Assembly: GCA_947594595.1 (NCBI GenBank)
Contig: CANQEE010000001.1
Location: 1 to 49,395 of the forward strand
Length of the DNA: 49,395 bases
DNA from: an uncultured Bacilli bacterium
GTDB taxonomy: Bacteria; Bacillota_I; Bacilli_A; RF39; UBA660
Direction of reading: 5' to 3'
A program made the position numbers and the translations under genes. The stretch's first letter is position 1; each line of letters begins with the position of its first letter. This document shows, piece by piece, positions 5,254-49,211 of this stretch. The notes under the pieces are model-generated. The model did not search any database and had not been told where the DNA came from. It saw nothing but the letters and a program-made list of their open reading frames with translations.

Positions 5254-5312
5254 CTCTTTTTTTCTTTGAATAAAACGTGTATAATAAGATAAGAAAAGAA
5301 TGGAGGATTCCT

Positions 5313-9878: not shown

Positions 9879-9882
9879 AAGC

Positions 9883-9923
9883 AAGACAGCGGTTGTCGTT
9901 ATTCGACAAAAGTTGTCTTTTTT
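9883..9923 (+). terminator. intrinsic terminator after tpiA
   Basis: Outer stem AAGACA (9883-9888) / TGTCTT (9914-9919), inner stem TTGTCG / CGACAA, then a T-run to 9923. Confidence 0.8.
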
Positions 9924-9989
9924 CTCTCTATCATTTTAGAAAGCATTGTTATATAATGTAGTTGCGTGTAGTAAAAGGAAGGAGAAAAC

Positions 9990-10766: not shown

Positions 10767-10790
10767 GACAAAAAGTCCTTTTCTTTTTTC
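10765..10790 (+). terminator. intrinsic terminator after spo0A
   Basis: AGGAC (10765-10769) / GTCCT (10775-10779) followed by TTTTCTTTTTT. The stem is short. Confidence 0.55.
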
Positions 10791-10799
10791 ATTTTATGA

Positions 10800-10828
10800 T
10801 TGACCTTAAAGAAAGAAAAAGGTATACT
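10800..10828 (+). promoter_or_regulatory. sigma-A-type promoter for the AAA ATPase-gpmA unit
   Basis: TTGACC (10800-10805), 17-nt spacer, TATACT (10823-10828). Confidence 0.6.
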
Positions 10829-10861
10829 TAATTTATAAAATATGTAAGGAGAGGACAATTT

Positions 10862-12146: not shown

Positions 12147-12836
12147 ATGTATCTTGTATTAGTAAGACATGGAGAAAGTACTTGGAATTTAGAAAATCGA
12201 TTTACTGGATGGATGGATGTTCCTCTTACAAAAAAGGGAGAGGAAGATGCAGAAAATGCAGGGAAACTCTTAAAAGAAAAAGGAATTTTGTTTGATGTTG
12301 TCTATACTTCAGTTTTACAAAGGGCAATTTGTACTTGGAATATTATTCAAAAAGAATTAAATACAAAGGCTCAAGTGATTCAAAATTGGCATTTAAATGA
12401 AAGACATTATGGAGCATTACAAGGACTCAATAAAGATGAGATGCGGAAAAAGTATGGAGAAGAACAAGTCTTTCTTTGGAGAAGGAGTTTTGCAGTAAGA
12501 CCTCCTGCTTTGTCCATTCAAGATGAACGCTCTCCTTTAAAAGATCCTAAATATAAAGATTTAACAGAAGATGAAATTCCAGTAGGGGAAAGTTTAAAAG
12601 ATACAATGGGACGAACTCTTTCTTATTATTTGGAAGAAATTAAACCTCAATTAGAAAAAGGAAAAAATGTTTTAATTGTTGCACATGGAAATTCCCTTCG
12701 TTCCATTTTAAAATTTATGGAAAATATAGAAGATGATGATATTGCGAATGTTGAAATTCCATTAGGAATTCCTTATGTATACGAATTGAATGAAAAGTTA
12801 GAGATTCAAAAGAAATATTATCTTTCTAAAGAATAG
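12147..12836 (+). CDS. gpmA: 2,3-bisphosphoglycerate-dependent phosphoglycerate mutase
   Basis: LVRHGESTWNLENRFTGW histidine-phosphatase motif and AHGNSLR second catalytic His block; 229 aa. Lies only 13 nt downstream of the ATPase gene. Confidence 0.95.
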   Translation: MYLVLVRHGESTWNLENRFTGWMDVPLTKKGEEDAENAGKLLKEKGILFDVVYTSVLQRAICTWNIIQKELNTKAQVIQNWHLNERHYGALQGLNKDEMRKKYGEEQVFLWRRSFAVRPPALSIQDERSPLKDPKYKDLTEDEIPVGESLKDTMGRTLSYYLEEIKPQLEKGKNVLIVAHGNSLRSILKFMENIEDDDIANVEIPLGIPYVYELNEKLEIQKKYYLSKE

Positions 12837-12855
12837 GCACAAAAAGTGCTTTTTT
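12835..12855 (+). terminator. intrinsic terminator after gpmA
   Basis: AGGCAC / GTGCTT 6-bp stem (one G-U pair) with an A5 loop, then a T-run. Confidence 0.5.
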
Positions 12856-12865
12856 GATTTAAAAG

Positions 12866-12894
12866 TTGACGAACTATTGTTTGTGTATTATACT
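12866..12894 (+). promoter_or_regulatory. sigma-A-type promoter of the Y-family polymerase gene
   Basis: TTGACG (12866-12871), 17-nt spacer, TATACT (12889-12894). The TTG that the ORF track uses as a start codon is this -35 box. Confidence 0.65.
12870..12883 (+). promoter_or_regulatory. LexA (Cheo/SOS) box candidate
   Basis: CGAACTATTGTTTG matches the Gram-positive consensus CGAAC-N4-GTTCG at all but one position (GAAC-N4-GTTT). It overlaps the -35 box and spacer of the promoter. Confidence 0.6.
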
Positions 12895-12913
12895 AATAAA
12901 AAGGAGGAAGGAC

Positions 12914-14131
12914 ATGAAAAAAATCATCTTTCATATCGATGTAAACAATGCCTTCCTTTCTTGGAGTGCTGTTTATTTATTGCAGCATGGATATCAACAA
13001 GATATTCGAACCATTCCTTCTGTCATTGGGGGAGATGAAACAAAGAGAAAGGGTGTTGTTTTAGCAAAGAGTCCAGTCGCAAAGCAATACGGAATTATAA
13101 CTGCAGAAACGCTTTATATGGCAAGAAAAAAATGCCCACAATTACAAGTTTTTTCTGCCAATTATCAGTGGTACCGAAAGTGTTCAGAAAATCTAATGCA
13201 ATATCTAAGTCAATATACTCCTTGCTTGGAACAATTTTCGATTGATGAGTGTTTTCTTGATTTTACAGGAACTTCTTTTTTATATAAAGATTATAGAAAA
13301 GTAGCTGAAAAAATCAGAAAAGAAGTAAAAGAGAAATTTGGATTTACTGTTAATATTGGAATTGCTTCTAATAAACTTTGTGCTAAAATGGCATCAGACT
13401 TTGAAAAGCCAGATAAGATTCATACACTTTTTCAAGAAGAGATTCCGACGAAAATGTGGCCTCTTCCAGTAGGAGATTTATTTATGGTTGGAAAAAGAAG
13501 TGAATTCAAATTAAATCAGTTGGGAATTTATACCATTGGGGATTTAGCAAATGCTCCACTTTCTTTGTTGAAAAGACATTTTAAAAATCAAGCTTTCTTT
13601 CTACAAGAAGCAGCTAGAGGAATTGATTCTAGTAAAGTAATTGCAAAAAGTGAGCAAAATAAGTGTATTAGTGTGTCAGAAACTCTACAATATGATTATA
13701 AAGATGAAGCAAAACTTAAGAAAATTTTATTGTATCAGGCAGAAGAAGTGGGACGTGCTTTAAGAGAACAAAGAATGTATGCTAAAAGTATCGCAGTGAC
13801 TTATAAAAATGCCATGTTTAAAAGTTATTCTCATCAAATGACTTTATTAAATGCAACCAATTTAACGGATGAAATTTATAAAAATGCCTGTCTTTTATTT
13901 GATCAAAGTTGGAGAGAAGATCCTATTCGAAATATTGGAATTCGATTAAGTGATTTTACGATGAATACTCAAGAACAACTCTCTTTTTTTCATGAAAAGG
14001 AAGATAAATTAGAAAATAAAGTACAAGAAGTAATCGATAAAATTACAAAAAAATATGGAACAGGAAGTTTAATTCCTGCAAGCTACAAGGAAGATTCAAG
14101 ACAAAGTCATGAGAAACTAAAAAAAAGATAA
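12914..14131 (+). CDS. dinB: Y-family DNA polymerase (DinB/Pol IV-like)
   Basis: Start at ATG 12914 behind AAGGAGGA. HIDVNNAF, SIDECFLD and NIGIASNKLCAKMASD blocks are typical of the ImpB/MucB/SamB family. Confidence 0.88.
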   Translation: MKKIIFHIDVNNAFLSWSAVYLLQHGYQQDIRTIPSVIGGDETKRKGVVLAKSPVAKQYGIITAETLYMARKKCPQLQVFSANYQWYRKCSENLMQYLSQYTPCLEQFSIDECFLDFTGTSFLYKDYRKVAEKIRKEVKEKFGFTVNIGIASNKLCAKMASDFEKPDKIHTLFQEEIPTKMWPLPVGDLFMVGKRSEFKLNQLGIYTIGDLANAPLSLLKRHFKNQAFFLQEAARGIDSSKVIAKSEQNKCISVSETLQYDYKDEAKLKKILLYQAEEVGRALREQRMYAKSIAVTYKNAMFKSYSHQMTLLNATNLTDEIYKNACLLFDQSWREDPIRNIGIRLSDFTMNTQEQLSFFHEKEDKLENKVQEVIDKITKKYGTGSLIPASYKEDSRQSHEKLKKR

Positions 14132-14198
14132 ATTTTTAAAAATTTTTTGTACAAGGCTTTTAATTTGTAATTTTTCTTGAAAAATCATCAAAAAAAGC

Positions 14199-14227
14199 TT
14201 GTTTTTTCAAAATTCATATGGTATTAT
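14199..14227 (+). promoter_or_regulatory. extended -10 sigma-A promoter of the S10 operon
   Basis: TTGTTT (14199-14204), 17-nt spacer, TGgTATTAT (14219-14227), preceded by an A/T-rich UP-like tract. Confidence 0.6.
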
Positions 14228-14232
14228 TTAAT

Positions 14233-14340
14233 ACGTGTGACTGCTTAGATGTGGGAGGTTGTCGATACACCAGGTTAAGTTGTTAATTGGTTATCGGGTT
14301 ATTCACACGGAGCAAGTCTATACTCGATATAGGCGAAGGG
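14233..14340 (+). promoter_or_regulatory. structured 5' leader of the S10 operon (candidate autoregulatory leader)
   Basis: A leader of about 120 nt lies between the promoter and rpsJ. ACGTGTGA (14233-14240) can pair with TCACACG (14303-14309), enclosing a G+C-richer segment than the flanks. No family assigned. Confidence 0.35.
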
Positions 14341-14350
14341 AGGATTAAGA

Positions 14351-14662
14351 ATGTCAACAGAAAGAATTCGCATCAAATTAAAAGCATATGATCATAGAGT
14401 TCTTGATAATGCTGTTACAAAGATTGTAGAAACAATCAAACGAGGTGGAGGACAAATTAAAGGACCTGTACCATTACCAACTGAAATTGAAAAATTTACA
14501 ATCTTACGTGCAGTACATAAATATAAGGATTCACGTGAACAATTCGAAATGCGTACACACAAAAGACTAATTGATGTTAAAAATCCAAGCAAGGAAGTCG
14601 TTGATGCTTTGGCACGACTTGACTTACCAAGTGGAGTAGACATCCAAATCAAAACAAACTAA
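14351..14662 (+). CDS. rpsJ: 30S ribosomal protein S10
   Basis: [14 protein letters not shown] signature, SD GGGAGGA, first gene of the conserved cluster. Confidence 0.98.
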
Positions 14663-14677
14663 TAGGAGGAAAATAAA

Positions 14678-15463
14678 ATGAAAGGAATCTTAGGTACAAA
14701 AAAAGGAATGACCCAAGTTTTTACAAAAAATGGAAAGTTAATTCCAGTTACTGTTATTGAAGTGGAACCTAATGTGGTAACACAAATTAAAACAGTGGAA
14801 AAAGAAGGCTATGATGCAATTCAACTAGGATATAAAACTACTTCTTCTAAAAGAAGCAGTAAGCCTAAAATGGGTCATACAAAAAAAGCAGGATGCGAAC
14901 CTAAGCGCTTCTTAAGAGAAATTCGTGGAGTCAATGTGGCTGATTATACTCTTGGACAGACGCTAGATGCATCCATATTCACAGAAGGTGAAATAGTTGA
15001 TGTAAGTGGAATCAGTAAAGGAAAAGGATTCCAAGGAGTAATTAAGCGTCATAATCAAAGCCGTGGACCAATGGGACATGGTTCTCAATATCATCGTGGA
15101 GTTGGATCTCTTGGAACAATGAGACCTATGCATGTATTAAAAGGAAAAAAATTACCAGGACAGATGGGACATGTGCTAAGAACTGTTCAAAACTTAGTTA
15201 TTGTAGAAGTTGATATGGAAAATAACTGTCTTCTTGTAAAAGGGAATGTTCCAGGACCAAAGAATAGTTTAGTTTTAATCAAAACTGCTGTAAAAAATCC
15301 AGACAAAGTAAAAGAAATGGAAGAATTAGTTACTTATGTGGAAGAAATACCAGTAGAAGATTCTAAGGAAGAGCAAGCTTCAACAGAAGAAGTTCAGACT
15401 GAAGTAGAAGAATCTAAAGAAGAAACAGACGAATCATCACAAGAAGAAAAAGTAGAGGAATAA
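14678..15463 (+). CDS. rplC: 50S ribosomal protein L3 with ~55-aa acidic C-terminal extension
   Basis: [15 protein letters not shown] start, with the conserved body ending near VLIKTAVK (aa ~206). An additional E/S/T-rich tail runs to aa 261. Confidence 0.97.
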
Positions 15464-35914: not shown

Positions 35915-37213
35915 TTATTCTTCTTTTTCTTTTCGTATTATTGTTCTAATTCCATAATAAGTTGGAAAGAAGTGTTTCATTGCAGAGTATAGAAAGGAAT
36001 CAATTATGTAATCGAATTCTCCAATTAACTCTACGACTTCTCCTCCAAAATTCTTTTTAAAAAGATAACTTCCATACATGGGACTGTTTTCTCTAAAATC
36101 TCCTGAAATTTCATATAAATTATAAAGATTATAACCATTTTCTTTTGCAAACTGAATCATTTCATAATGAAGTGTAATTGAAGCATCTAATTTTTTCCAT
36201 TCTTCGAAAACTCCACCATGGAGTGCAATTACTTCATTTCCATAACAGATTAGGAAATATCCTCCTAAAAGAATTTCTTCTCCATTTTCTTGCAAAGCAA
36301 GTTGATAAGCTTCTTTTCTTTTCTCTAGACTTTGAATCAATTCTTCTTGTTGTTTTTCTTTCTCTAAGAATTCTTTTTCGTTCATATGTAAAACAACTTC
36401 TTTTTGGAAAGCTCTATTATAATAAGCTTGTTTTTGTTCTTGCAGTTCTCTCTCAATTTCTTCAAGTGCCTCTTTTGGATGTAGTTCTACACCAACCATT
36501 TTAATAGCTTCTTCAGGAAAAGATTCTATAAAATCTTCATAATAATGATTGGTATATTCAATTGTATGATATTTTTCACTTGTTTCTTTCATAATTGAGA
36601 CAAAGCTTTCAATTTCTTTTTTCTTAAGAAATCGTGATCTTATTCCTTCTCGTTTATTTCGATGAACAATCTGTCTTGTTTTATCTCCCATTTCCTTTTC
36701 AAGCATTTCAAAAGATTTATTTCTTAAATCAATAGCGTATAACCATCGTGGTTGAATCATATTTCGCTTAAAGTCATCTCCCACATGTATGAACCCTACT
36801 TCTTCTAGAAGCTTTATGATAGGACTATTATCTTTTCCACCTTTTTGCAGTTCTCCATTTTTATCTCTTTCATGCCAAGAAAGATAAGGATCTATCTTTA
36901 GATAAATTCCCTTTTTTTCTTTTACAAACTGAATGACTTCTTTTGTAAAAACTTTTACTAATTCCTCTTTCTGATAGTCAATTAAAAATCCTCTAGGTGC
37001 ATAAAAATAACGTTTTTTAAAAAATTTTGTATCTTGTGAAAGCAGTAAAGTAGCAGCTACAAGTTTTCCTTTTTCTTTGTATCCTAAAAAATAAGGATGC
37101 CATCCGTCTTTTTCCATAAATTTAGCCCAGTATGAGTTTTGTTGAAAATTATTATGGGGATGAGATTCTGCAAAGGAGTCAAATTCTTGCTTTTTTAGTT
37201 CTATCACCATCAT
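35915..37213 (-). CDS. FemAB-family peptidoglycan interpeptide-bridge aminoacyltransferase
   Basis: 432 aa. The N-terminus FDSFAESHPHNNFQQ...YAPRGF is followed by a central coiled-coil insertion (EIERELQEQKQAYYNRAF...EKEKQQEELIQSLEKRKEAY) and a C-terminal YNLYEISGDF...GSYLFKKNFGG block, as in FemA/FemX/MurM. The second ATG at 37210 has better SD spacing. Confidence 0.85.
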   Translation of the reverse strand: MMVIELKKQEFDSFAESHPHNNFQQNSYWAKFMEKDGWHPYFLGYKEKGKLVAATLLLSQDTKFFKKRYFYAPRGFLIDYQKEELVKVFTKEVIQFVKEKKGIYLKIDPYLSWHERDKNGELQKGGKDNSPIIKLLEEVGFIHVGDDFKRNMIQPRWLYAIDLRNKSFEMLEKEMGDKTRQIVHRNKREGIRSRFLKKKEIESFVSIMKETSEKYHTIEYTNHYYEDFIESFPEEAIKMVGVELHPKEALEEIERELQEQKQAYYNRAFQKEVVLHMNEKEFLEKEKQQEELIQSLEKRKEAYQLALQENGEEILLGGYFLICYGNEVIALHGGVFEEWKKLDASITLHYEMIQFAKENGYNLYNLYEISGDFRENSPMYGSYLFKKNFGGEVVELIGEFDYIIDSFLYSAMKHFFPTYYGIRTIIRKEKEE

Positions 37214-37364: not shown

Positions 37365-37400
37365 AAAAAAATAGAATAAGTTATGAAAGAGGGAATAAAT

Positions 37401-38669
37401 ATGCTTCAGGAAATAGAAGAAAATGAGTTTCAATCTTTTGCAGAGTCTCATCCATTATTCACATTTCATCAAACAAAAGAGTGGGCTTCTTTGAAACAGA
37501 AGAATGGGTGGGAGCATCATTATGTTTTTTATCAAAAAGGAAAAAAGAAGGCTGCAGCTTTGCTTCTTATGAAACCTCTTTTTCTAGGAAAAGTAATGTG
37601 TTATAGTCCAAGAGGTTTTCTTCTTGATTATGAAGATCAAAAGTTTTTAGCCTCTTTTACAGACGCATTGAAAAAATATTTAAAAGAAAAAAAAGCTATT
37701 TTTGTTAAAATTGATCCACCTCTTCTCCTACAAGAGAGAGATATTGATGGACATCTTGTTGAAAATGGAAAAAACCATAAAAAAGTTGTTTCTGTTTTAA
37801 AGTCACTTGGTTACATTCATTATGGGTTTTCAAAAGGAATAGAAAAAGAATTACAACCAAGGTGGGTTTTTGCTCTTTCTCTTGATAAAAAAAGTGAAGA
37901 ACAAATTTATGAAAACTTTGATACAAGGACAAAACGTTCTATTAAGAAGTGTGAGAGAGAAGGTATTTTTGTAAGAGAGATGAAAGAGGGTGAACTTCCA
38001 CTTTTTAAAGCTATTATGGAGCATACTGCAAATCGTAGAGGTTTTTTAGATAGACCTTTTCAATATTATCAAAATATGGTTTCTGAATTAAAAAAACATT
38101 GCTCTATTTTGCTTTGTTTTCTTGATGTTGAAAAAGCATTTTCTCTTTTAGAAGAACGTGAAAAAGAACAGAAGATTAAACAAAAAAATTATCAGGATCA
38201 AAAGGAGAGTAAAAAGAAAGAAGCTCTTTTAAAAGAAAGTGAAAAACAACTCAATCAAATTCAAGAAAAAAAAGAATTTTTGTTACATTTACAAAAAGAA
38301 AGAGGAAATCAAATTATACTAGGTGGTTCTATGTTCTTACAGTATGGAAAAGAAAAAACTTATCTTTTTGGTGGAAGTTATCAAGAGTTTATGCAATATC
38401 CAAGTCAATATTATATTCAGTGGAAGTCTATTCAAATGGCTAAAAAACAAGGATGTAAACTCTATAATTTTTATGGAATTGATGGGAATTTTGAATCTCC
38501 AAGTGAAATGCATGGAATTTATGAATTTAAAAGAGGTTTTGATGGAGAAGTAAGAGAATATATAGGAGAATTTGATCTTCCTATTTCGAAAACTTTTTAT
38601 AGATTTTATCGCTTTGCATTTCCTATTTATAAAAAAATGAAAAAAATTTTAATAAAAAAGAAGAATTAG
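37401..38669 (+). CDS. FemAB-family peptidoglycan interpeptide-bridge aminoacyltransferase (paralog)
   Basis: It has the same architecture as the divergent neighbour and looks roughly 40 percent identical by eye: FQSFAESHPLFTFHQ, YSPRGF, a coiled-coil insert and YNFYGIDGNF...GIYEFKRGFDG. ATG 37401 lies behind AGAGGGA; the ORF-track ATG at 37383 has no SD. Confidence 0.85.
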   Translation: MLQEIEENEFQSFAESHPLFTFHQTKEWASLKQKNGWEHHYVFYQKGKKKAAALLLMKPLFLGKVMCYSPRGFLLDYEDQKFLASFTDALKKYLKEKKAIFVKIDPPLLLQERDIDGHLVENGKNHKKVVSVLKSLGYIHYGFSKGIEKELQPRWVFALSLDKKSEEQIYENFDTRTKRSIKKCEREGIFVREMKEGELPLFKAIMEHTANRRGFLDRPFQYYQNMVSELKKHCSILLCFLDVEKAFSLLEEREKEQKIKQKNYQDQKESKKKEALLKESEKQLNQIQEKKEFLLHLQKERGNQIILGGSMFLQYGKEKTYLFGGSYQEFMQYPSQYYIQWKSIQMAKKQGCKLYNFYGIDGNFESPSEMHGIYEFKRGFDGEVREYIGEFDLPISKTFYRFYRFAFPIYKKMKKILIKKKN

Positions 38670-40756
38670 TCTTTTTGCTTAAAGTAAAAAGCTCCTAATT
38701 CTTCTTTTTCGATGGTTTCTAAAATATCTTTTGCATGCTTTTTTTCATTCTCAGAAAGGAAGAAACAACTTAGGTGTCCCCCATTGGTAAAGGAATGATA
38801 ATCTTTTTCTAAAAGAAGTTTTGATTTCCATGACGAAAGAGATGATTCAAAACTATTTGTATAAGCTTCTTTTTCTGTAATTCCTTTGCTTTTTCCATAA
38901 ATTGCAGTATCAATTTGATTAAAATGCCTACAAACATCTTCTACTTTTTTTCCTGTTAAAGTAAAATTCAAATTATATAAAGTGCTATAAGAGTTCACTT
39001 TTTCTCTCATATGATGCAAAATTTTGGTGGCAAGTTTTTTACTTCTTTCTTCTATTCTTTTTTCATTGGTAAGTGCAAAAAGAGTTTCTTCTAATCCAAC
39101 AAAATGGATGGAGAGTGTTCCATGCTTCAATATTTTTCGAAGTCGATCTGTTTCTTTCAAATTTTTTCCATCTTGCCAAATATTTTCTCCAAAAAGAAGA
39201 GGAAATTGAAAACTTTTTTTACTACATAATATTTCAAAACAAGAAAGCAATGCATCTTTTGCTAGATCTAATGATTGATCTAAAGCCTTAAAGAAATCAT
39301 TTTCTGATACAGTGTGTTTTTCTTGTTGTAATTTTAAAGTAAGTCTTGGTAAGTTCATAGAGCAAGTGAAAAGATTTCCTTTTCCTCCAATAATTCTAGC
39401 ATCTTGTGTGGTTGTATCATCAACGGCTCTTCCTCCATCTTGAAAATAACAAACTTCGGTTGTTTTATTTCCGTTTTGATAAAGTGCTTTATTTGCTTTC
39501 ATTTCTAAGTTTATAAAGCGAAATTTTGAAGAATGAATAGCTAAGTTCAGATAAAGCTCTGTATAAGAATAGTAAGGATCTTCTGATTTTTGATTTTTCC
39601 CTTTTTGTAATTTCCAAAGATAAAATGGAACTTCTCTAGAGCATTCTTTTTCGCATTTTAAAATCGTTTTTGTAAAAAGAAGTCCTTCTTTTTCTATATT
39701 GGTTCCAAATCCTATACTAATTGTAGGGTAAGAAGAAGTTTTATCATAAATAGAGTTTAAATTTGTTAAAAAATGAGAAATTGCCTTTTGAATTCGTTTT
39801 TCCATTTTTTTCCTTGCTTGTTTTCCTGCTTTTTCAAATCCAAGCTGTAAAAATTCTGCCTTTGGATATAATGTTTTAATCATAGGAAAATCTTCATCAA
39901 TGGAGTTGAGATGCTCTATTTCTTTTTGAATTCGTTCAATACTTAAAAAAGTTTTAAAATCACTATATTCAAGGAAAGATTGAATCTCTTCTTGTAGGCA
40001 TTCCTTATAAGTAGATAAGATGTAGGGTGCAATATCATAATCCAAATTAGGAATTAAAATTTGTCCATAAATAGTAGTAGCAACGGAATTTAATAAAAGA
40101 AGGAGGAAGTCTAAAAACTCTTCTATATTATGAATTTCTTCTTCTTTTGTATGGAGGGCAACACCCTCTTTTAAAAGTCTTTCAATATCAAGTTCAATGT
40201 TTTCAATACTTCCTAAAGAAATAGCTTCTAAATGTGGAATTTCAATAAGTCCCGTATCGATCGCTTTTAAAATTTTATTTTCCAAAAGATAGGCTTTTGT
40301 AAAACCAGATGCAATTGTAATTCCATAATTATTGAGTCGCTCATAAGGACTTCTTTCTCTTTTTGATTTTTCATCTTTATCTTTAAGACCTAAGGCCTCA
40401 ATAGTCTTTAAAAATTTATGTTGTTGTTTGGTTACAAATGCTTTTCTTGAAGCACTTCTTTGTTCTCGATAATTTTGAAAGGAATGATAGACATCTTGAT
40501 ACCCTTTCTTTTCAAGTGTTTCTTCAATTAAATCCTGAATGTCTTCAATTTGAATGGTTTTTCTTTCCTTGTATTCTTTTTGAATTACACTTAAAACTGC
40601 TTCATAAATTCTGTTCACATCTTCTTCTTGATAAGGATATTCTACACTATCAAATGCTTTTTTTATTGCAATTGCAATTTTTTCTCCTTGAAAAGTAGTT
40701 CTCTGCCCGCTTCGTTTAACGACTACCAAAGTGTCAAATAATGTCGCTTTTTTCAA
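38666..40756 (-). CDS. ATP-cone-containing NrdD-like protein lacking the Zn-ribbon and glycyl-radical C-terminus
   Basis: TTG start 8 nt behind AGGAGGTG. The N-terminal ATP-cone is followed by blocks collinear with the neighbouring NrdD (YGQILIPNLDYDIAPY, GNLFTCSMNLPRL, YTNSFES, NGGHLSCF). The ORF ends where NrdD begins its CxxC...CxxC and RxxGY segment. Confidence 0.75.
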   Translation of the reverse strand: MKKATLFDTLVVVKRSGQRTTFQGEKIAIAIKKAFDSVEYPYQEEDVNRIYEAVLSVIQKEYKERKTIQIEDIQDLIEETLEKKGYQDVYHSFQNYREQRSASRKAFVTKQQHKFLKTIEALGLKDKDEKSKRERSPYERLNNYGITIASGFTKAYLLENKILKAIDTGLIEIPHLEAISLGSIENIELDIERLLKEGVALHTKEEEIHNIEEFLDFLLLLLNSVATTIYGQILIPNLDYDIAPYILSTYKECLQEEIQSFLEYSDFKTFLSIERIQKEIEHLNSIDEDFPMIKTLYPKAEFLQLGFEKAGKQARKKMEKRIQKAISHFLTNLNSIYDKTSSYPTISIGFGTNIEKEGLLFTKTILKCEKECSREVPFYLWKLQKGKNQKSEDPYYSYTELYLNLAIHSSKFRFINLEMKANKALYQNGNKTTEVCYFQDGGRAVDDTTTQDARIIGGKGNLFTCSMNLPRLTLKLQQEKHTVSENDFFKALDQSLDLAKDALLSCFEILCSKKSFQFPLLFGENIWQDGKNLKETDRLRKILKHGTLSIHFVGLEETLFALTNEKRIEERSKKLATKILHHMREKVNSYSTLYNLNFTLTGKKVEDVCRHFNQIDTAIYGKSKGITEKEAYTNSFESSLSSWKSKLLLEKDYHSFTNGGHLSCFFLSENEKKHAKDILETIEKEELGAFYFKQKD

Positions 40757-41061
40757 TATATTGACACCTCCTAACCTTTAAATATATTATAAATGAAAAG
40801 CCTTTATAAATCAAGGTTTCCCTTTTACTTTGTAAAAAAACACAATAAAAAAACATTAAAAAAAACGAATGATAAAAAATGAGTAAAAGTGTTGATATAA
40901 AAGAATAAAATATCTATATAAATGTACTTTTTTAATTATGTTTTTTTTATTTGTTTTTTCTGTAAACCGAACAAAAATAAAAGTTTACAAATAGTAAAAA
41001 TGAAAGAAAAAAATAATTGAAAAGACTATAATCATTTTAACACAGTAAAAGGAGTGAAAGT

Positions 41062-43254
41062 ATGACAAAGGTAAAAGAGAAAAGCGAAGAGAAAGCAAAG
41101 AAAACGATCCATAAAAAATATAATAATCCTAAAATCAATATTATTAAGAAGAATGGAACGAAGCAACCTTTTGATGGAGCTAAAATATGTGCTGCGATTG
41201 AAAAAAGTGCAGAACGTGTTATGGTTGATTTAACAGAAGATGCTAAAGATGAGGTTGTAAATATTGTGATAGACTTACTTAAAAATCAAAGTAGCGATGC
41301 AGAGGTAAGTCAAATTCATAATTGTGTAGAAGCAGCTCTTGAACAAGTAAATCCATTGGTTGCAAAAAGTTATCGGGAATATAGAAATTACAAAAATGAT
41401 TTTGTTCATATTTTAGATAAGGTCTATAAGAAAGCTCAGGCTATCAATTATATTGGAGATAAAGAAAATTCAAATACAGATAGTGCTTTAGTTTCTACAC
41501 AAAGAAGTTTGGTTTATGGAAATTTAAATAAGGAACTTTATAAAAAATTCTTCTTAACAAAGGCAGAAATTGAAGCTTGCGAGGATGGTTATATCTATGT
41601 GCATGATATGTCTGCAAGACGAGATACAATGAACTGTTGTCTTTGTGATGTAGGAGCGGTTATGAAAGATGGTTTTGAAATGGGAAATCTCTGGTATAAC
41701 GAACCTAAAACACTTGATACTGCTTTTGATGTTATGGGAGATGTGATCATCAATACGGCTGCTATGCAATATGGAGGATTTACAGTTCCAGAAGTCGATA
41801 CAATTTTAACTCCTTATGCAAAGAAAAGTTATAATAAATATTATGAAGAATATATGGAAATTACAGAAGGAAATGATCCTTCTAAAGCAGAAGAATATGC
41901 TTGGCGTAAGACAAGAAGAGAATGTGAGCAAGGATATCAGGGAATTGAATATAAGTTAAATAGTGTAGGTTCTAGTCGTGGAGATTATCCATTTGTTACC
42001 TTTTCTTTTGGGCATGAAGAAGATCCTTATGGACAGATGGTTGCAGAAGTGATTTTAAAAACGCATATGAAAGGACAAGGAAAACCTGGATATAAAAAAC
42101 CAACCCTTTTTCCAAAACTTGTCTTCTTATATGATAAAAATTTGCATGGAAAAGATTGTAAAATGGGATATTTATTTGATGCAGCTTTAGAATGTAGTTC
42201 TAAGACGATGTACCCAGATTATTTATCTTTAACAGGAGAAGGTTATGTTCCTGAAATGTTTAAAAAATATGGAAAGATTGTAAGTCCAATGGGATGCAGA
42301 GCTTTTCTTTCTCCTTGGTTTGAACGTGGAGGAATGAAACCGAAAGATAAAGATGATCAAGCTGTTTTTATTGGAAGGTTTAATATTGGAGCAATTTCAT
42401 TAAACTTACCAATGATTCTAGCAAAAGCAAGAGAAGAACAAAAAGATTTTTATGAAGTTTTAGATTATTATTTGGAAATGATTCGTAAAATTCATATTCG
42501 GACATATCATTATTTAGGAAAGAAAAAAGCTTCTACCAATCCACTTGCTTATTGTGAAGGTGGTTTCTATGGAGGTCATTTACAACCAAATGATTCTATT
42601 GAACCTCTTTTAAAAGCTTCTACAGCTTCTTTTGGAATTACAGCTTTGAATGAATTACAAGAACTTTATAATGGAAAAAGTTTGGTTGAGGATGGAAAAT
42701 TTGCTTTAGAAGTGATGCGTTATATTAACAAAAAACTTGATAAGTATAAACAAGAGGACAATATTTTATATGCTATTTATGGAACACCAGCAGAAAGTCT
42801 TTGTGGAACACAAGTGGAGCAGTTTAGAAAAAAATATGGAATTGTAAAAGGAGTTTCTGATCGGGAATATGTATCAAATAGTTTCCATTGCGGTGTTTGG
42901 GAGGACATTACAGGAATTGAAAAACAAGATTTAGAAGGAAGATTCTGGGATTTATTCAGAGGAGGAAGGATTCAGTATGTTCGCTACAACTTAAATTATA
43001 ACAAGGAAGCTATGAGAACTTATGTAGAAAGAGCTATGGAAAAAGGATTCTATGAAGGAGTAAACCTATCACTTTCTTATTGCAATGTCTGTGGGCATGA
43101 AGAATTAGAAATGGATACTTGTCCAAAGTGTGGAAGTAGTGATCTTACGAAAATTGATCGTATGAATGGATATCTTTCTTATTCTAGAGTTCACGGAGAT
43201 ACACGTTTAAATCATGCCAAAATGGTAGAAATTGCAGAAAGGAAATCAATGTAA
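41062..43254 (+). CDS. nrdD: anaerobic ribonucleoside-triphosphate reductase (class III)
   Basis: 730 aa with an ATP-cone, SPMGCRAFL finger-loop block, TPAES, a C-terminal CNVCGHEELEMDTCPKCG zinc ribbon, and the glycyl-radical loop DRMNGYLSY. Confidence 0.95.
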   Translation: MTKVKEKSEEKAKKTIHKKYNNPKINIIKKNGTKQPFDGAKICAAIEKSAERVMVDLTEDAKDEVVNIVIDLLKNQSSDAEVSQIHNCVEAALEQVNPLVAKSYREYRNYKNDFVHILDKVYKKAQAINYIGDKENSNTDSALVSTQRSLVYGNLNKELYKKFFLTKAEIEACEDGYIYVHDMSARRDTMNCCLCDVGAVMKDGFEMGNLWYNEPKTLDTAFDVMGDVIINTAAMQYGGFTVPEVDTILTPYAKKSYNKYYEEYMEITEGNDPSKAEEYAWRKTRRECEQGYQGIEYKLNSVGSSRGDYPFVTFSFGHEEDPYGQMVAEVILKTHMKGQGKPGYKKPTLFPKLVFLYDKNLHGKDCKMGYLFDAALECSSKTMYPDYLSLTGEGYVPEMFKKYGKIVSPMGCRAFLSPWFERGGMKPKDKDDQAVFIGRFNIGAISLNLPMILAKAREEQKDFYEVLDYYLEMIRKIHIRTYHYLGKKKASTNPLAYCEGGFYGGHLQPNDSIEPLLKASTASFGITALNELQELYNGKSLVEDGKFALEVMRYINKKLDKYKQEDNILYAIYGTPAESLCGTQVEQFRKKYGIVKGVSDREYVSNSFHCGVWEDITGIEKQDLEGRFWDLFRGGRIQYVRYNLNYNKEAMRTYVERAMEKGFYEGVNLSLSYCNVCGHEELEMDTCPKCGSSDLTKIDRMNGYLSYSRVHGDTRLNHAKMVEIAERKSM

Positions 43255-43256
43255 GT

Positions 43257-43835
43257 ATGAAATATCACAACATTACCAAAGCAGATATGTTAAATGGGGA
43301 AGGCCTTCGTGTTGTTCTATGGGTAAGTGGATGTTCTCATCAATGCCCTGGTTGTCAAAATGCAATTACCTGGGATCCTGAAGATGGAGTTTGTTTTGAT
43401 GATGATACCATTAAGGAAATTTATGAAGAATTAGAAAAAGATTGGTGTAGCGGACTTACTCTTTCAGGTGGGGATCCACTTTATCTTGGAAATCGAAAAA
43501 CGATTCGAGATTTGGTAACAAATGTAAAACAAATTTATCCAAATAAAACAATTTGGTCTTATACTGGATATACTTGGGAAGAGTTAATGGCACAATGTGA
43601 AAATGATGAAAATTTGAAAGATATTTTAGCAAATATTGATGTACTCTTAGAGGGTCGTTTCATATTAAAATTAAAAGAAGATAAACTTCACTATGTAGGA
43701 AGTAGTAATCAAAGAATTATTGATGTTCCTAAAAGTTTAGAAGAAGGGCAAATAGTACTGTATATTGATAATAGTAAAATTTTAGAAGAAATCAATAAAA
43801 GTGAAGTACAAGTTGCTTGTGAATGTAATAGTTAG
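43257..43835 (+). CDS. nrdG: anaerobic ribonucleotide reductase activating protein (radical SAM)
   Basis: CSHQCPGCQN CxxxCxxC cluster motif and GLTLSGGDPL; lies immediately downstream of nrdD. Confidence 0.93.
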   Translation: MKYHNITKADMLNGEGLRVVLWVSGCSHQCPGCQNAITWDPEDGVCFDDDTIKEIYEELEKDWCSGLTLSGGDPLYLGNRKTIRDLVTNVKQIYPNKTIWSYTGYTWEELMAQCENDENLKDILANIDVLLEGRFILKLKEDKLHYVGSSNQRIIDVPKSLEEGQIVLYIDNSKILEEINKSEVQVACECNS

Positions 43836-43843
43836 GAGGCTTT

Positions 43844-44299
43844 ATGAGACAAAGAGGATTTGAAATTGCCAAGGGATGGGAAGAGAAAGGAATTCATCTT
43901 CCAAAAAGAAATACAAAGTTTTCAGCAGGGTATGATGTAGAAGCAGCAGAAGATATTACAATTCCACCTTTTCAACTAGGACAGAAACCAACGTTAATTC
44001 CTACAGGATTAAAAGGTTATTGTATGGAAGATGAGTATTTTATGCTTGTAAATCGTAGTTCTGGACCTAAAAAGGGACTTGTTATGCCTAATAGTATTGG
44101 AATTGTAGATAAAGACTATTATGGAAATGAAAATAATGATGGACACTTTTACTTTCAATTTTACAATATAAAAGAAGAGCCTATTACCATTCATAAAGGT
44201 GATGTCATTGGACAGGTAATATTTCACAAATTTTTAACGGTTGATCAAGACGAAGCTTCTGGAGTAAGAAGAGGTGGATTTGGTTCAACAGATCAATAA
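43844..44299 (+). CDS. dut: dUTP diphosphatase
   Basis: SAGYDV, NRSSG, GIVDKDYYG and RRGGFGSTD motifs of trimeric dUTPases. Confidence 0.9.
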   Translation: MRQRGFEIAKGWEEKGIHLPKRNTKFSAGYDVEAAEDITIPPFQLGQKPTLIPTGLKGYCMEDEYFMLVNRSSGPKKGLVMPNSIGIVDKDYYGNENNDGHFYFQFYNIKEEPITIHKGDVIGQVIFHKFLTVDQDEASGVRRGGFGSTDQ

Positions 44300-44333
44300 A
44301 AAAAGAGATCAGTTAATTTGATTTCTTTTTTTT
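44298..44333. terminator. bidirectional intrinsic terminator between dut and the convergent HTH gene
   Basis: AAAGAGATCA (44302-44311) / TGATTTCTTT (44319-44328) forms 10 bp with one G-U pair. It is flanked by an A-run upstream and a T-run downstream, and overlaps the last codons of the minus-strand ORF. Confidence 0.7.
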
Positions 44334-44570
44334 GTTGCTTTTATATTCAATAATGTCAGACCAATCACAATCTAAGTATTCAAAGATTCTTGCTAAAACA
44401 AAAATATCAACCCTTGTAACAGTTCCTTTCGCAAGTCTTTGAATGACTTTAAAATCTGTATCAATATCACGCATTAACTTGTTTTTACTAATATGCTTTT
44501 TTTCTAAGAGTTCTTCTAACTTAAAATTATATTCACCATTGTCAGTAGGGACTTTGATTGTCTTTTTCAT
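44313..44570 (-). CDS. XRE-family helix-turn-helix transcriptional regulator (85 aa)
   Basis: ISKNKLMRDIDTDFKVIQRLAKG...VDIFVLARIFEYLDCDWSDIIEY resembles Cro/C1-type HTH_26 proteins. ATG 44570 lies behind AAAGGTGA; the GTG at 44579 is part of the SD. Confidence 0.75.
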   Translation of the reverse strand: MKKTIKVPTDNGEYNFKLEELLEKKHISKNKLMRDIDTDFKVIQRLAKGTVTRVDIFVLARIFEYLDCDWSDIIEYKSNKKKKSN

Positions 44571-44614
44571 TTCGATCACCTTTCTATTTCAATTGTATCA
44601 GTTATAAGTGTTGT

Positions 44615-44936: not shown

Positions 44937-45227
44937 ATGAAAGATGAAGAACTTTATGATTTAGCAGAGTTTTTTAAAGTGTTTGCGGATTCTACTAGAA
45001 TAAAAATAATTTCAGCCCTTCTTGAAAGGGAACTTTGCGTTTTTGAACTTGCTGAAATTGTAGGAACAACACAATCTGCTATTTCACATCAACTTCGAAT
45101 TTTAAAGCAAAGCCACTTGGTAAAATTTCGAAGAGAAAAAACAACAATTTATTACAGCTTGGATGATGATCATATTAAGGATATTTTCATGAAAGGAAGA
45201 GAGCATATTGAAGAAATATCATTATAA
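44937..45227 (+). CDS. ArsR/SmtB-family metalloregulator (alpha5-site, Zn/Co-sensor-like)
   Basis: Winged HTH ELCVFELAEIVGTTQSAISHQLRILK. The C-terminus has DDH-x10-H-x2-E (LDDDHIKDIFMKGREHIEE), matching the DxH-x10-HxxH/E alpha5 pattern. It has no N-terminal Cys pair of the CadC type. Confidence 0.85.
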   Translation: MKDEELYDLAEFFKVFADSTRIKIISALLERELCVFELAEIVGTTQSAISHQLRILKQSHLVKFRREKTTIYYSLDDDHIKDIFMKGREHIEEISL

Positions 45228-47244
45228 AATTACAGGAATTGATTGTGCAAGTTGTGCACATGAAATAGAGACAATGTTAAAGAAAAGGGGAGATCTTTTT
45301 AATGTTTCACTCAATTTTTCACTAGAGAAACTCTCTTTTGAATCTGAAAAAGAAGATCTTTCTAAAACTTTATTAAAAGAAATGAAGAAAATTGAACCGA
45401 GTGTTTCTTTGGAACAAGATGAAGAACAAGGTTTTCTCTTGGATGTACTCCGTCTATTTTTAGGAAGTCTTTTCTTTCTTTGCTCTTTTCTGATTTCTTC
45501 AAAACTTCTCTCCTTTCTTTTGGTTCTTCTTTCTTATCTTATTCTTGTATATCCTACTTTAAAAAAAGCCTATTTTAATTTGCTTTCCAAAACGATTAAC
45601 GAAAATTTTTTGATTACATTTTCTTCTTTTGGTGCTTTACTTATTCAAAAAAATAAGGAAGGCTTTATGGTTTTATTTTTATATGGAATAGGAAAATTAT
45701 TAGAAAAGAAAGCCATTCGAAAAAGTAGAAATTCAATTCAAGAGTTGATGGATTTACAAGTAGATGAGGTTATTGTAAAGAAGAAGGAAGGTTATGAAGT
45801 TCTTTCTAAGGAAGAAGTTTCAGTTGGAAGTGTTATTCTTGTAAAAAAAGGAGAAAAAGTTCCATTAGATGGGATTTTATTAGATTTATATACAGAAGTA
45901 GATGCAAAATCTTTGACGGGAGAAAGTTCTTATCAAGTGATAAGAAAAGGAGAAGAAATTCTTTCTGGATGTATCAATGTAAAAGAAGCTATTCTTATCA
46001 AAACAACAAAAACATATCAAGAAAGTACAGTCTCTTGTATTCTAGATTTGATTGAAAATGCAGGAGAGAAAAAATCAGAGGCGGAAACATTTGTTACAAA
46101 AGTTTCTGAAATTTATACTCCAATTGTTTTACTTTTAGCGATTTTGATTGCTCTTTTTTATCCAGTTTTTACAGGAGATAATTTTATTCAAGGATTTTAT
46201 CATTCTCTCGTGTTTGTTGTCATTTCATGTCCTTGTTCCATTGCAATTTCTATTCCACTTGCATATTTTACTGGAATTGGTGTTTTAAGTAGAAATGGGA
46301 TTTTAGTAAAGGGAAGTACTTATTTAGATCGAATTCGAGAAATGAAAAGAATTATTTTTGATAAAACAGGTACTTTAACGACGGGTGTTTTTCAAATTGC
46401 AGAGATCTATAACATGGAAAATATTTCCAAAAAAGAAGTTCTTTTCTATATAGGATTAGGGGAATCTTTTTCTACGCATCCTATCGCGGTGGCTATTCAA
46501 AAAGAGATTTCTTTTAAGTTGCCGGTTTCTGAAGTGTCTTCTTTTAAAGAAGAGGCTGGAAAAGGTATTTCTTATCATTATCAGGGAAAAAAGATTTGTA
46601 TAGGAAATGAGAAATGGATAAAGCCTAAGAAAAAATATAAAGGAACAGTTTTATATTTATCTATAGATGGAATTGAAAATGGTGCAATTGTTTTAGAAGA
46701 TAAAATTAAAGAAAATGCAAAGAATGTAATAGAAAATCTAAAGAAACAACAAATTGATTCCTATATGTTTACAGGCGATAAAAAGGAGGTTGCTAAGAAA
46801 GTTGGGGAAACGTTAGGGATACAATATGTAGAGGCAGAACTTTTGCCAAAAGAAAAATACCAATTATTGGAAAAAATTTTATCAGATCATGAAATTACAG
46901 CTTTTGTAGGAGATGGAATCAATGATAGTCCATCACTTCGACGATGTGATCTAGGAATTTCTATGGGAGGTATTGGAAGTGCTGCTGCGATTGAAGCCAG
47001 TGATATTGTTTTAATGGATGATCAACTTTCTAAGATTCCTCGTATGATTCAAATAGCAAACTATATTCATAAAATTGTAGTACAAAATTTAGTGTTTGCA
47101 CTAGGAATTAAGATAGGAACACTCATCCTTTCCTTATTTGGTATTGTTTCTATGTGGCAAGCTGTTTTTGCAGATGTTGGTGTTACTCTTCTTACCATTC
47201 TAAATACTTTTCGTATTTTGAAATGGGTGTCTGTTAAAAAGTAA
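45208..47244 (+). CDS. heavy-metal (Zn/Cd/Co-type) translocating P1B-type ATPase
   Basis: N-terminal HMA motif GIDCASCAHEIE, TM CPC motif (SCPCSIAIS), DKTGTLT phosphorylation site and GDGINDSP hinge. The TTG start at 45208 overlaps the end of the regulator gene. Confidence 0.93.
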   Translation: MKKYHYKITGIDCASCAHEIETMLKKRGDLFNVSLNFSLEKLSFESEKEDLSKTLLKEMKKIEPSVSLEQDEEQGFLLDVLRLFLGSLFFLCSFLISSKLLSFLLVLLSYLILVYPTLKKAYFNLLSKTINENFLITFSSFGALLIQKNKEGFMVLFLYGIGKLLEKKAIRKSRNSIQELMDLQVDEVIVKKKEGYEVLSKEEVSVGSVILVKKGEKVPLDGILLDLYTEVDAKSLTGESSYQVIRKGEEILSGCINVKEAILIKTTKTYQESTVSCILDLIENAGEKKSEAETFVTKVSEIYTPIVLLLAILIALFYPVFTGDNFIQGFYHSLVFVVISCPCSIAISIPLAYFTGIGVLSRNGILVKGSTYLDRIREMKRIIFDKTGTLTTGVFQIAEIYNMENISKKEVLFYIGLGESFSTHPIAVAIQKEISFKLPVSEVSSFKEEAGKGISYHYQGKKICIGNEKWIKPKKKYKGTVLYLSIDGIENGAIVLEDKIKENAKNVIENLKKQQIDSYMFTGDKKEVAKKVGETLGIQYVEAELLPKEKYQLLEKILSDHEITAFVGDGINDSPSLRRCDLGISMGGIGSAAAIEASDIVLMDDQLSKIPRMIQIANYIHKIVVQNLVFALGIKIGTLILSLFGIVSMWQAVFADVGVTLLTILNTFRILKWVSVKK

Positions 47245-48291: not shown

Positions 48292-48350
48292 AAATGAACT
48301 CCTTTTTTCATATTGGTAATTAGCCATTCTTTTGAACCGAGGTGATTTAT

Positions 48351-49211
48351 TTGAAAAAGTATATGACTTTTGAAGAATATTTTAAAACACAATCAACTCA
48401 TCAGGAGAAAGAATCTAGATGGAAAAAGGGAAGAGGCATCCTTATGACTTTGTGTCTTAGTGGTATTCTTTTATCATTACTAATTTTATTAAATTGGTTT
48501 TATGATCATTCCAAAATTCAACAAATTCACAAAGAAATTGACAAAAGTATTTATATAGATAAAGATTTTGATCAAGGCGAACTTGTCAACCCACCTAAAA
48601 ATAAGAAAAGTGAGTATTATTACTATGCTAAGATTCCATTTTATAATGTTAGTTTTTCAATTTTATTATCTAAAAATATAGATACAGTAGGATTTATTCG
48701 CCTTAGGAATACAAAGATTCATTATCCTGTAGTTCAAGCTATGAATAATGAATATTATTTAACTCATGCTTTTGATAAGACAGAAAATCAAGCAGGTTGG
48801 ATTTTTATGGATTATCGAAATCACATAGATTCTTTGGATGATAATACAACGATTTATGGTCATGCAAGAATGGATGGATCTATGTTTGGTTCTTTGAAAA
48901 ATGTTTTGTCTTCTTCTTGGCAAAAAAACCGTGATAATTATGTAATTTTTTTATCTACGTTGAAGGAAAAATTCATTTTTCAAATTTTTTCCATCTATAC
49001 GATTAAAAGTGAGGGCTATTATATTACACCCAATTTTAGTAATAGCAAAAAGAAGGAAATTTGGCTTTCTACAATGAAAGAAAGAAATATTGCTCCTATT
49101 GATACAGAAGTTAATATAAATGATAAGATTCTTACTTTATCGACTTGTCAAAATAATCAAGGAAAAAGAATTGTTGTTCATGCAAAACTTATCAAGCGAA
49201 GTAATTACTAA
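48351..49211 (+). CDS. srtB: class B sortase
   Basis: N-terminal TM anchor, IHYPVVQAMNNEYYLTHAFD and GWIFMDYRN blocks, catalytic His in TIYGH, and catalytic Cys in TLSTCQ. TTG 48351 lies 5 nt after GAGGTGA; GTG 48342 and ATG 48363 are alternative starts. Confidence 0.88.
   Translation: MKKYMTFEEYFKTQSTHQEKESRWKKGRGILMTLCLSGILLSLLILLNWFYDHSKIQQIHKEIDKSIYIDKDFDQGELVNPPKNKKSEYYYYAKIPFYNVSFSILLSKNIDTVGFIRLRNTKIHYPVVQAMNNEYYLTHAFDKTENQAGWIFMDYRNHIDSLDDNTTIYGHARMDGSMFGSLKNVLSSSWQKNRDNYVIFLSTLKEKFIFQIFSIYTIKSEGYYITPNFSNSKKKEIWLSTMKERNIAPIDTEVNINDKILTLSTCQNNQGKRIVVHAKLIKRSNY

Follow-up and report, generated by a model that had tools for sequence, protein, structure and literature searches.

What is the role of a homolog of class III ribonucleotide reductase (RNR) that stands beside a complete reductase and has itself lost the parts that make a reductase? 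The question is raised by a 49,395-nucleotide stretch of DNA from an uncultured Bacilli bacterium (assembly GCA_947594595.1, contig CANQEE010000001.1, positions 1 to 49,395), referred to below as the window. It holds, divergent from an nrdD-nrdG-dut unit, a shorter gene whose 696-amino acid (aa) product opens with an ATP-cone and stops before the zinc ribbon and the RxxGY glycyl-radical loop of NrdD (Table 1). A reading of the letters alone (the original prediction) had suggested that this protein is a nucleotide-sensing pseudoenzyme that regulates or partners NrdD, or else a repurposed scaffold. Our results indicate that the short gene very probably encodes a dead, selected and nrd-linked pseudo-NrdD, and we give a probability of roughly 0.6 to the explanation that its product, descended from a PRK07111-type RNR, has no catalytic role and serves the class III RNR locus as an accessory that senses ATP/dATP.

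To define what had been lost, we compared the motifs of 65 members of the short family with those of 123 catalytic relatives, taking the residue roles from the study of Prevotella copri NrdD (PMC11226230). The finger-loop Cys that forms the thiyl radical was present in all 123 catalytic relatives and in none of the 65 short proteins, and the window protein has Asp440 at that position. The first-strand Cys, which is the second catalytic Cys (Cys171 in P. copri NrdD), was found in 100% of the catalytic and 2% of the short proteins (Asn186 in the window protein), loop 2 in 100% and 2-9% (DKT-SSY), the ATPAEG loop with its Glu in 99% and 0-25% (GKKVED), and the NxN flap in 99-100% and 0-6%, respectively, the flap being deleted just after the linker in the window protein. 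The zinc ribbon occurs in 98% of the catalytic relatives and in no short protein, the window protein included, and the HxHD motif reads EIPH in the latter. Thus, the window protein has neither the two Cys residues nor the substrate-binding elements of a functional NrdD (NxN flap, HxHD, ATPAE loop and loop 2), and the zinc ribbon and RxxGY loop are missing both in cis and on an adjacent small open reading frame (ORF). A phmmer search showed that no ORF of at least 35 aa in the window resembles a separate glycyl-radical peptide, and RxxGY was absent from these ORFs as well as from the protein, whether sought as a spare GrcA/YfiD-like module or as a split 51-aa peptide.

In the catalytic group 332 columns show an invariance of 97% or more, and 179 of them were kept in less than 30% of the short members. 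Family-specific conserved substitutions were found at only five positions, which gives no sign of a new active site. Pseudo-NrdD has lost every element for substrate binding, for the thiyl radical and for receipt of a glycyl radical, and it is predicted to be unable to reduce nucleotides. The sequence statements of the original prediction (the ORF, the cone, the collinear block pairs, the C-terminal cut and the overlapping stops) were all borne out, and its claim that the protein cannot carry a glycyl radical and so falls outside the conventional class III reductases is strongly supported and now extends to the finger-loop Cys, the first-strand Cys, the NxN flap, HxHD, loop 2 and the TPAE loop with its Glu. 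Its argument that there is no room for a split C-terminal fragment agrees with the overlap between the stop of the short gene and that of the convergent FemAB gene (3/4 shared bases), and with the result of the ORF search.

Pfam recognised only an ATP-cone and an NRDD domain in the protein. The cone exceeds the gathering score of PF03477, and the nucleotide contacts of the two-nucleotide cone type are in place (KR in the roof of the β-hairpin, Y/R/R on the last helix). The PF13597 alignment covers only profile positions 14-503 of 562 and therefore ends approximately 60 profile positions before the C-terminus of the model; the protein itself ends in GAFYFKQKD, at the point where full-length relatives go on with the zinc ribbon and the RxxGY loop. 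All NCBIfam equivalog models for NrdD matched far under their curated cutoffs, PRK07111 being the best (336 versus 764 bits) and TIGR02487 giving 189 versus 326 bits. The AF2 model had a mean predicted local distance difference test score (pLDDT) of 85.5 and a predicted template modelling score (pTM) of 0.77, with low pLDDT at residues 451-457. When it was compared with the PDB by Foldseek, the best matches were all NrdD (P. copri, E 2.7e-36, then S. thermophilus and T4), the target TM score to NrdD cores being 0.73-0.86. Since the model is confident and its top PDB matches are solely NrdD, the fold has been kept as a scaffold, and both PF13597 and Foldseek place it as the α/β barrel of NrdD and the glycyl-radical enzymes. 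The profile searches (PF13597, PF03477 and TIGR02487) and the structural comparison that had been proposed with the original prediction have thus given a cone, an incomplete NRDD match, a TIGR02487 score below cutoff, and an NrdD fold with Asp at the finger-loop Cys position.

The window protein and the adjacent 730-aa NrdD are collinear, but only 22% identical over 654 columns (BLASTP, E 3e-23). Since the best NCBIfam match is PRK07111 and the closest catalytic relatives are approximately 38% identical, the short protein is not a recent duplicate of its neighbour and derives from a different, PRK07111-type subfamily. A database search gave relatives of three kinds: (i) a few full-length enzymes of approximately 780 aa with YMGCRTRV, ATPAEG, the zinc ribbon and RRITGY, (ii) a majority of approximately 757 aa with all catalytic motifs and the zinc ribbon, whose Cys-rich tail breaks off immediately ahead of the glycyl loop, and (iii) a short class, 591-730 aa in length, that includes the window protein. 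In a neighbour-joining tree the fast-evolving short class was monophyletic, with long branches, beside the catalytic PRK07111-type clade. A profile search against 1.84 billion cluster representatives gave at least 86 short-like clusters at 50% identity among its best 150 hits. The family is therefore old and diverse, and not a local truncation. The original prediction had named a local truncation or pseudogene as what would overturn it; the lack of the zinc ribbon and RxxGY in 65 of 65 members, the monophyly and the purifying selection described below go against such a view.

The genome scan found the family in uncultured Bacilli of the gut, the samples being from rabbit, human, goat and chicken. 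Profile hits longer than the short class were intein-containing or NrdG-fused catalytic NrdDs, and no informative domain fusion with the short family was seen. One short member is named 'anaerobic ribonucleoside-triphosphate reductase' by NCBI. A basal, intermediate-looking member of 729 aa (P0029, locus L088) has YMGSTAR in the finger loop (Cys to Ser) and ATPSGYLSG, and is without the zinc ribbon. Its gene is remote from any nrdDG, with recU/PBP genes on one side and a bPH_2 gene on the other.

The ATP-cone has fared differently from the catalytic half. Alignment showed that K14, R15, Y96, R100 and R104 correspond to the nucleotide contacts K7, R8, Y83, R87 and R91 of P. copri NrdD, in which K7 and R8 are triphosphate contacts and the cone is of the two-nucleotide type (PMC11226230). 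All five are invariant in the family (K14 and R15 in 27 members), as are the linker residues R104, F107 and K110-K117. Mean column identity was 0.60-0.63 in cone plus linker (0.63 in the linker region, aa 102-125) and 0.23-0.43 in the barrel, cone and linker thus being the best conserved parts. Invariance extends over approximately 60 positions, among them the cone's entire nucleotide-binding face; several motifs of the barrel (GGKG, DRLRK.LKHG, NLNF, D.AIYG and GG) are likewise invariant. Ratios of non-synonymous to synonymous substitution (dN/dS, omega) were compromised in most pairs by saturated dS (>1), and only L059-L064 and L019-L020 were reasonably unsaturated. In the least saturated pair, L059-L064 (dS 0.31), omega was 0.085 over the full length (cone 0.042, remainder 0.093), as compared with 0.075 for the neighbouring nrdG and 0.013 for nrdD; barrel omega was approximately 0.09-0.2, and dN of the short gene was 3-9 times that of the neighbouring nrdD. 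On the evidence of pair L059-L064, purifying selection acts on the protein throughout its length and is strongest in the cone.

The survey of co-occurrence with nrdD, which had likewise been proposed at the outset, showed that the short gene adjoins nrdD and/or nrdG, as a complete or contig-truncated system, in 40 of 42 species-level loci (95%). The partner systems comprise three NrdD types in four arrangements. The short gene is divergent from a T4/E. coli-like nrdD-nrdG-dut in the window and in more than 20 other loci, and divergent from an nrdG-nrdD of the MCCR type in L002, L021, L062 and L067; it forms a co-directional short-nrdG-nrdD operon (MCCR type) with abutting or overlapping genes in L073-L087, and once, in L043, it lies directly upstream of a full-length PRK07111-type nrdD-nrdG. 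Across the 80 species genomes that were recovered, a short gene was found together with a catalytic PRK07111-type gene only in L043.

Near relatives do not keep the same partner. Short proteins that are 68-72% identical adjoin different NrdD types in L019/L020 and in L021/L062, and the DNA homology between these loci starts only approximately 100 bp upstream of the short gene; the catalytic cassette was thus replaced in situ and the short gene kept. A T4-like nrdD-nrdG has here been exchanged for an nrdG-nrdD of the MCCR type with thioredoxin (Trx), and the flanking dut (at least in L021) was retained with the short gene. The swap is a clean case of non-orthologous exchange of an essential enzyme at a single locus. 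All partner NrdDs carry an ATP-cone of their own. The MCCR-type partners have a C-terminally fused thioredoxin/glutaredoxin-like domain (PF00462/PF00085), and the reductant thus appears to be built into these reductases. In one clade a flavodoxin gene lies directly downstream of the short gene (L089, L090). NrdG activation usually draws its electrons from flavodoxin, and the adjacency could be relevant or a coincidence.

The 305-bp region between the short gene and nrdD contains candidate promoters for both and conserved repeats. The AGGAGG Shine-Dalgarno sequence, 10 nucleotides upstream of the TTG start of the short gene, is conserved in five related loci, and the motif cATTGATTTATAA together with the TATAAT of the candidate short-gene promoter in six aligned loci. 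In 18 loci the length of the region was mostly approximately 300-312 bp (range 274-312). The repeats AAAAAAACAT and TGTAAAYCGAAC were not significant by window-only statistics, and it is their conserved position in different loci that gives them weight. The recurring repeats are not NrdR-box-like in appearance. No NrdR box matched in the intergenic region, and five weak matches across the window equal the chance expectation. More generally, the class III RNR promoters of this lineage are flanked by conserved repeats, of which ATGTTTTTTT and AAAAAAACAT form an inverted pair. Most operon-type and split-nrdD loci have the pair at a constant 68-bp spacing, with the right copy directly against the -35 element (AAAAAAACATTGAC); in divergent loci the spacing is approximately 90 bp. 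TGTAAA(T/C)CGAAC / GTTCG(A/G)TTTACA and the TTTAC-N5-GTAAA palindrome also recur upstream of class III RNR loci; the repeats were found upstream in L006, L016, L024, L029, L037, L042, L043, L047, L069 and L073-L087.

The split-nrdD loci deserve a separate description. Most catalytic PRK07111-type NrdDs of gut Bacilli are divided into a large subunit of approximately 757 aa, in which MGCR, TPAE and the zinc ribbon are preserved and the C-terminus is a Cys-rich tail (e.g. NCYDCCGR), and a separate ORF of 50-79 aa (typically approximately 51 aa) that carries the glycyl-radical loop (MERENKRTKVVGEGVEFERIRRITGYLVGTLDRFNNAKKAEVNDRVKHATK), with nrdG next. The layout was seen in approximately 33 loci, e.g. 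L016, L024-L027, L029-L040, L042, L044-L050, L054-L056, L068-L070 and L072; in L006 a formate/nitrite transporter follows nrdG. We found no description in the literature of a class III RNR whose glycyl-radical peptide is the product of an ORF of its own. The split nrdD genes reported in phages are homing-endonuclease splits and differ from this small-ORF split.

How might the retained cone act? In canonical class III enzymes it acts in cis, positioning the active-site flap (PMC11226230) and, in one study, also ordering the glycyl-radical domain (PMC12662201). The cone of pseudo-NrdD would still bind ATP and dATP and, since both the NxN flap and the glycyl-radical domain are gone, its nucleotide state would probably be read out in trans. 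The likeliest route would be a cone-driven change of oligomerisation or contacts with generic class III features, the ATP-cones of the partner NrdD or the activase being candidate contacts; the partner swapping favours such a generic interface (cone-cone contacts, activase) or an effect on expression. The outcome would be an added dATP/ATP-dependent layer of control over anaerobic dNTP synthesis. The gene probably originated by duplication of a PRK07111-type nrdD, as in the tandem state of L043, or by functional displacement by incoming nrdDG cassettes, the regulatory half being kept while the catalytic half decayed. A specific trans-regulatory mechanism of this kind is tentative, and we hold it at somewhat less than even odds. 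The wider proposal that pseudo-NrdD is a third component of class III RNR in a large group of gut Bacilli, its cone exerting dATP/ATP control in trans on NrdD or on the activation of NrdD by NrdG, whatever the NrdD subtype, is rather unlikely as formulated.

Several observations weigh against an accessory role of this sort. The partner NrdDs already have cones, so the need for an extra one is not obvious, and the short genes of L015, L065 and L088 stand alone within the available flanks, so linkage to nrdDG is not obligatory. Purifying selection on the barrel implies some role of the barrel beyond holding the cone. Because near relatives have different NrdD partners, a specific co-evolved heterodimer interface is unlikely, and we infer both nucleotide binding and any interaction of pseudo-NrdD from the amino acid sequence. 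The functional part of the original prediction is supported in that the invariant cone and the 95% linkage agree with a nucleotide-sensing pseudoenzyme that regulates or partners NrdD. The partner swapping speaks against a specific co-evolved heterodimer with the neighbouring NrdD, and the role itself stays a matter of inference.

Instead of acting on the reductase, the protein might control its gene. It would then be a nucleotide-sensing regulator that binds the nrd promoter repeats or the mRNA and adjusts nrdDG transcription to dATP/ATP, i.e. a functional analogue of NrdR. Divergent transcription from nrdD over a length-conserved intergenic region with conserved inverted repeats and no NrdR box fits this idea, and an ATP-cone is the sensing domain of NrdR (PMC9110341). 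However, Pfam detected only the cone and NRDD and no DNA-binding domain, there is no zinc ribbon, and the same repeats with the fixed 68-bp spacing lie upstream of split-nrdD operons in genomes showing no short gene. Another factor probably binds them, and we regard the regulator as improbable. There is likewise only a small chance that the old barrel was repurposed as an enzyme or binding protein with a non-radical role on nucleotides or another ligand, unrelated to the regulation of NrdD. The purifying selection on the barrel, its several invariant motifs and the three members not adjoining nrdDG would be expected on this account, but almost all conserved barrel residues are common to the catalytic relatives and thus look structural, none of the five family-specific conserved substitutions forms an evident new site, and the 95% linkage to nrdDG, the lack of a match to the PADLOC defence models and the lack of informative domain fusions speak against it.

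The remaining two explanations disagree with the data more directly. A non-functional, slowly decaying relic of a displaced NrdD would account for the loss of more than half of the catalytically invariant columns, for the 3-9-fold higher dN, and for the finding that short and catalytic PRK07111-type copies are almost never together among the 80 species genomes. It is contradicted by the selection data (omega approximately 0.09 in the unsaturated pair), and it sits badly with the persistence, across at least 86 clusters at 50% identity, of unbroken ORFs of much the same length, with the approximately 60 invariant positions that include the nucleotide-binding face, with the conserved ribosome-binding site and promoter, and with the retention of the short gene while the neighbouring cassette was replaced. 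It is thus very unlikely that the gene is a relic. We give hardly any credence to a protein that is still a reductase and receives its radical in trans, from a separate glycyl-radical peptide or from the neighbouring NrdD: the closest catalytic relatives do use a separate peptide of approximately 51 aa, but none is encoded in the window, and without the thiyl Cys, the second Cys, the NxN flap, HxHD, loop 2 and the TPAE loop nothing is left to relay a radical or to bind a substrate, which contradicts this explanation.

The surroundings of the nrd genes are ordinary. The FemAB-family peptidyltransferase paralogs that adjoin the short gene as a divergent pair recur in the closest relative (L001), with a FemAB gene nearby in L089, and their proximity is probably local synteny only. 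The window also contains a Cro/C1-type helix-turn-helix protein, a metal-efflux pair in which an ArsR-family regulator overlaps a P-type ATPase, a sortase and a Y-family DNA polymerase. Rfam found no RNA family anywhere in the window, and a terminator scan around the short gene found none.

Table 1. Positions of the features discussed, in the window and in other loci (locus named in the first column)
Locus	Feature	Position	Strand	Basis or remark
Window	Whole short gene, NrdD-derived non-catalytic protein, 696 aa	38666..40756	-	ORF list; TTG start, stop included; Pfam ATP-cone and NRDD
Window	Start codon TTG	40754-40756	-	
Window	ATP-cone domain, aa 11-101	40454..40726	-	PF03477, E 1.4e-14, 54.9 bits (cutoff 25.8)
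Window	Cone end and linker helix, aa 102-125	40382..40453	-	Invariant KQQHKFLK..E.LG motif
Window	Degenerate NrdD α/β barrel, aa 142-691, ends at last barrel strand	38684..40333	-	PF13597, E 1.3e-59
Window	Finger-loop remnant YFQDGGRAVDD, aa 437-447; Asp440 where catalytic NrdDs have the thiyl-radical Cys	39416..39448	-	Aligned to YMGCRTRV (catalytic relatives) and MGC(416)R (P. copri NrdD)
Window	Stop codon of short gene	38666-38668	-	Overlaps stop of convergent FemAB gene
Window	Shine-Dalgarno AGGAGG	40767-40772	-	Complement of these positions
Window	Divergent intergenic region, 305 bp, candidate promoters and conserved repeats	40757..41061	.	
Window	Candidate short-gene promoter, TTGATT-17-TATAAT	40814..40786	-	
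Window	Repeat AAAAAAACAT	40847-40856	+	
Window	Inverted copy of AAAAAAACAT	40938-40947		
Window	Repeat TGTAAACCGAAC	40961-40972		
Window	Palindrome TTTAC-N5-GTAAA	40984-40998		
Window	TATAAT of candidate nrdD promoter	41027-41032		
Window	Complete catalytic NrdD, 730 aa: ATP-cone, MGCR, TPAE, zinc ribbon, RMNGY	41062..43254	+	TIGR02487 564.8 bits (cutoff 326); PF13597 positions 1-560 of 562
Window	NrdG activase (radical SAM)	43257..43835	+	PF13353, 161 bits
Window	dUTPase, last gene of conserved nrdD-nrdG-dut unit	43844..44299	+	Same order beside short gene in >20 loci
Window	FemAB-family peptidyltransferase, convergent with short gene	37383-38669	+	
Window	FemAB-family peptidyltransferase, second of the pair	35915-37213	-	
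Window	Cro/C1-type helix-turn-helix protein	44313-44579	-	
Window	ArsR-family regulator	44937-45227		
Window	P-type ATPase	45208-47244		
Window	Sortase	48342-49211		
Window	Y-family (ImpB/DinB-like) DNA polymerase	12866-14131		
L006	Split nrdD with nrdG	8001-11018		
L006	Large subunit of split NrdD	8001-10277		
L006	Small ORF (...FERIRRITGYLVG...)	10307-10462		
L006	nrdG	10449-11018		
L073	MCCR-type NrdD with fused C-terminal domain	12724-15108		
L021	MCCR-type NrdD with fused C-terminal domain	4991-7366	-	
L087	MCCR-type NrdD with fused C-terminal domain	12654-14969		
L089	Flavodoxin	10017-10475	-	
L090	Flavodoxin	4131-4589	-	
L088	Basal short-family member P0029	5320-7509		

ATP-cones are the master switch of dNTP synthesis and, to our knowledge, the cases so far are active RNR subunits and the repressor NrdR. 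Here a large conserved family has retained nothing but the switch and the scaffold, and its link with functioning anaerobic reductases persists even after these have been swapped for another type. If pseudo-NrdD acts in trans, it would add a new regulatory layer to the supply of DNA precursors in abundant uncultured gut bacteria. As a third component of class III RNR it would, moreover, be the first subunit among glycyl-radical enzymes to be described as a pseudoenzyme, and its ATP-cone would signal in a new way. The family is also a natural system for separating ATP-cone signalling from catalysis, and its annotation in public databases as anaerobic ribonucleoside-triphosphate reductase would mislead metabolic reconstructions. 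As the original prediction had surmised, no description of a short, NrdD-derived, non-catalytic protein was found in the full-text literature on class III RNR and glycyl-radical enzymes. Since dead RNR paralogs are known in class I, and cones off the catalytic subunit are known in NrdB and NrdR, pseudo-NrdD is not categorically new.

The closest solved structure is that of P. copri NrdD (PDB 8P23/8P28), with which the window protein shares the order of ATP-cone, linker and 10-stranded barrel (sequence match E 1.6e-49), the basic and aromatic contacts of the cone, and the RGNL Asn (Asn435), whereas it is without the NxN flap, HxHD, Cys171, loop 2, Cys416, the TPAE/Glu581 loop, the zinc site and Gly711/Tyr712. 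The nearest relatives in sequence are the split PRK07111-type NrdDs of gut Bacilli, which have the same promoter repeats and a near-identical ATP-cone and linker motif (VVVKRSGQR..., KQQHKF[LV]K); these enzymes keep all catalytic motifs, and the glycyl loop on an adjacent small ORF, and the short family has neither. Yeast Rnr4, a class I small-subunit paralog without metal ligands or an ATP-cone, supports Rnr2 in a specific heterodimer with this close paralog. Selection has retained it, catalytically dead, to assist an active RNR, as is proposed here for pseudo-NrdD, but it belongs to another RNR class and subunit, and the partner types of pseudo-NrdD vary. NrdR is an ATP-cone protein for RNR control that senses ATP/dATP and changes its oligomeric state (PMC9110341; PMC12051234). 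It resembles pseudo-NrdD in the cone, but is a protein of approximately 150 aa with an N-terminal zinc-ribbon DNA-binding domain, whereas pseudo-NrdD has no zinc ribbon, gave no TIGR00244 match and carries a 550-aa barrel. Finally, Leeuwenhoekiella blandensis has its ATP-cone on NrdB, the radical-generating subunit (PMC5794259), and provides a precedent for control of overall activity by a cone that is not on the catalytic polypeptide. In that class I enzyme the cone sits on an active NrdB and the catalytic subunit is coneless, whereas here it sits on a dead homolog and the active NrdD has a cone as well.

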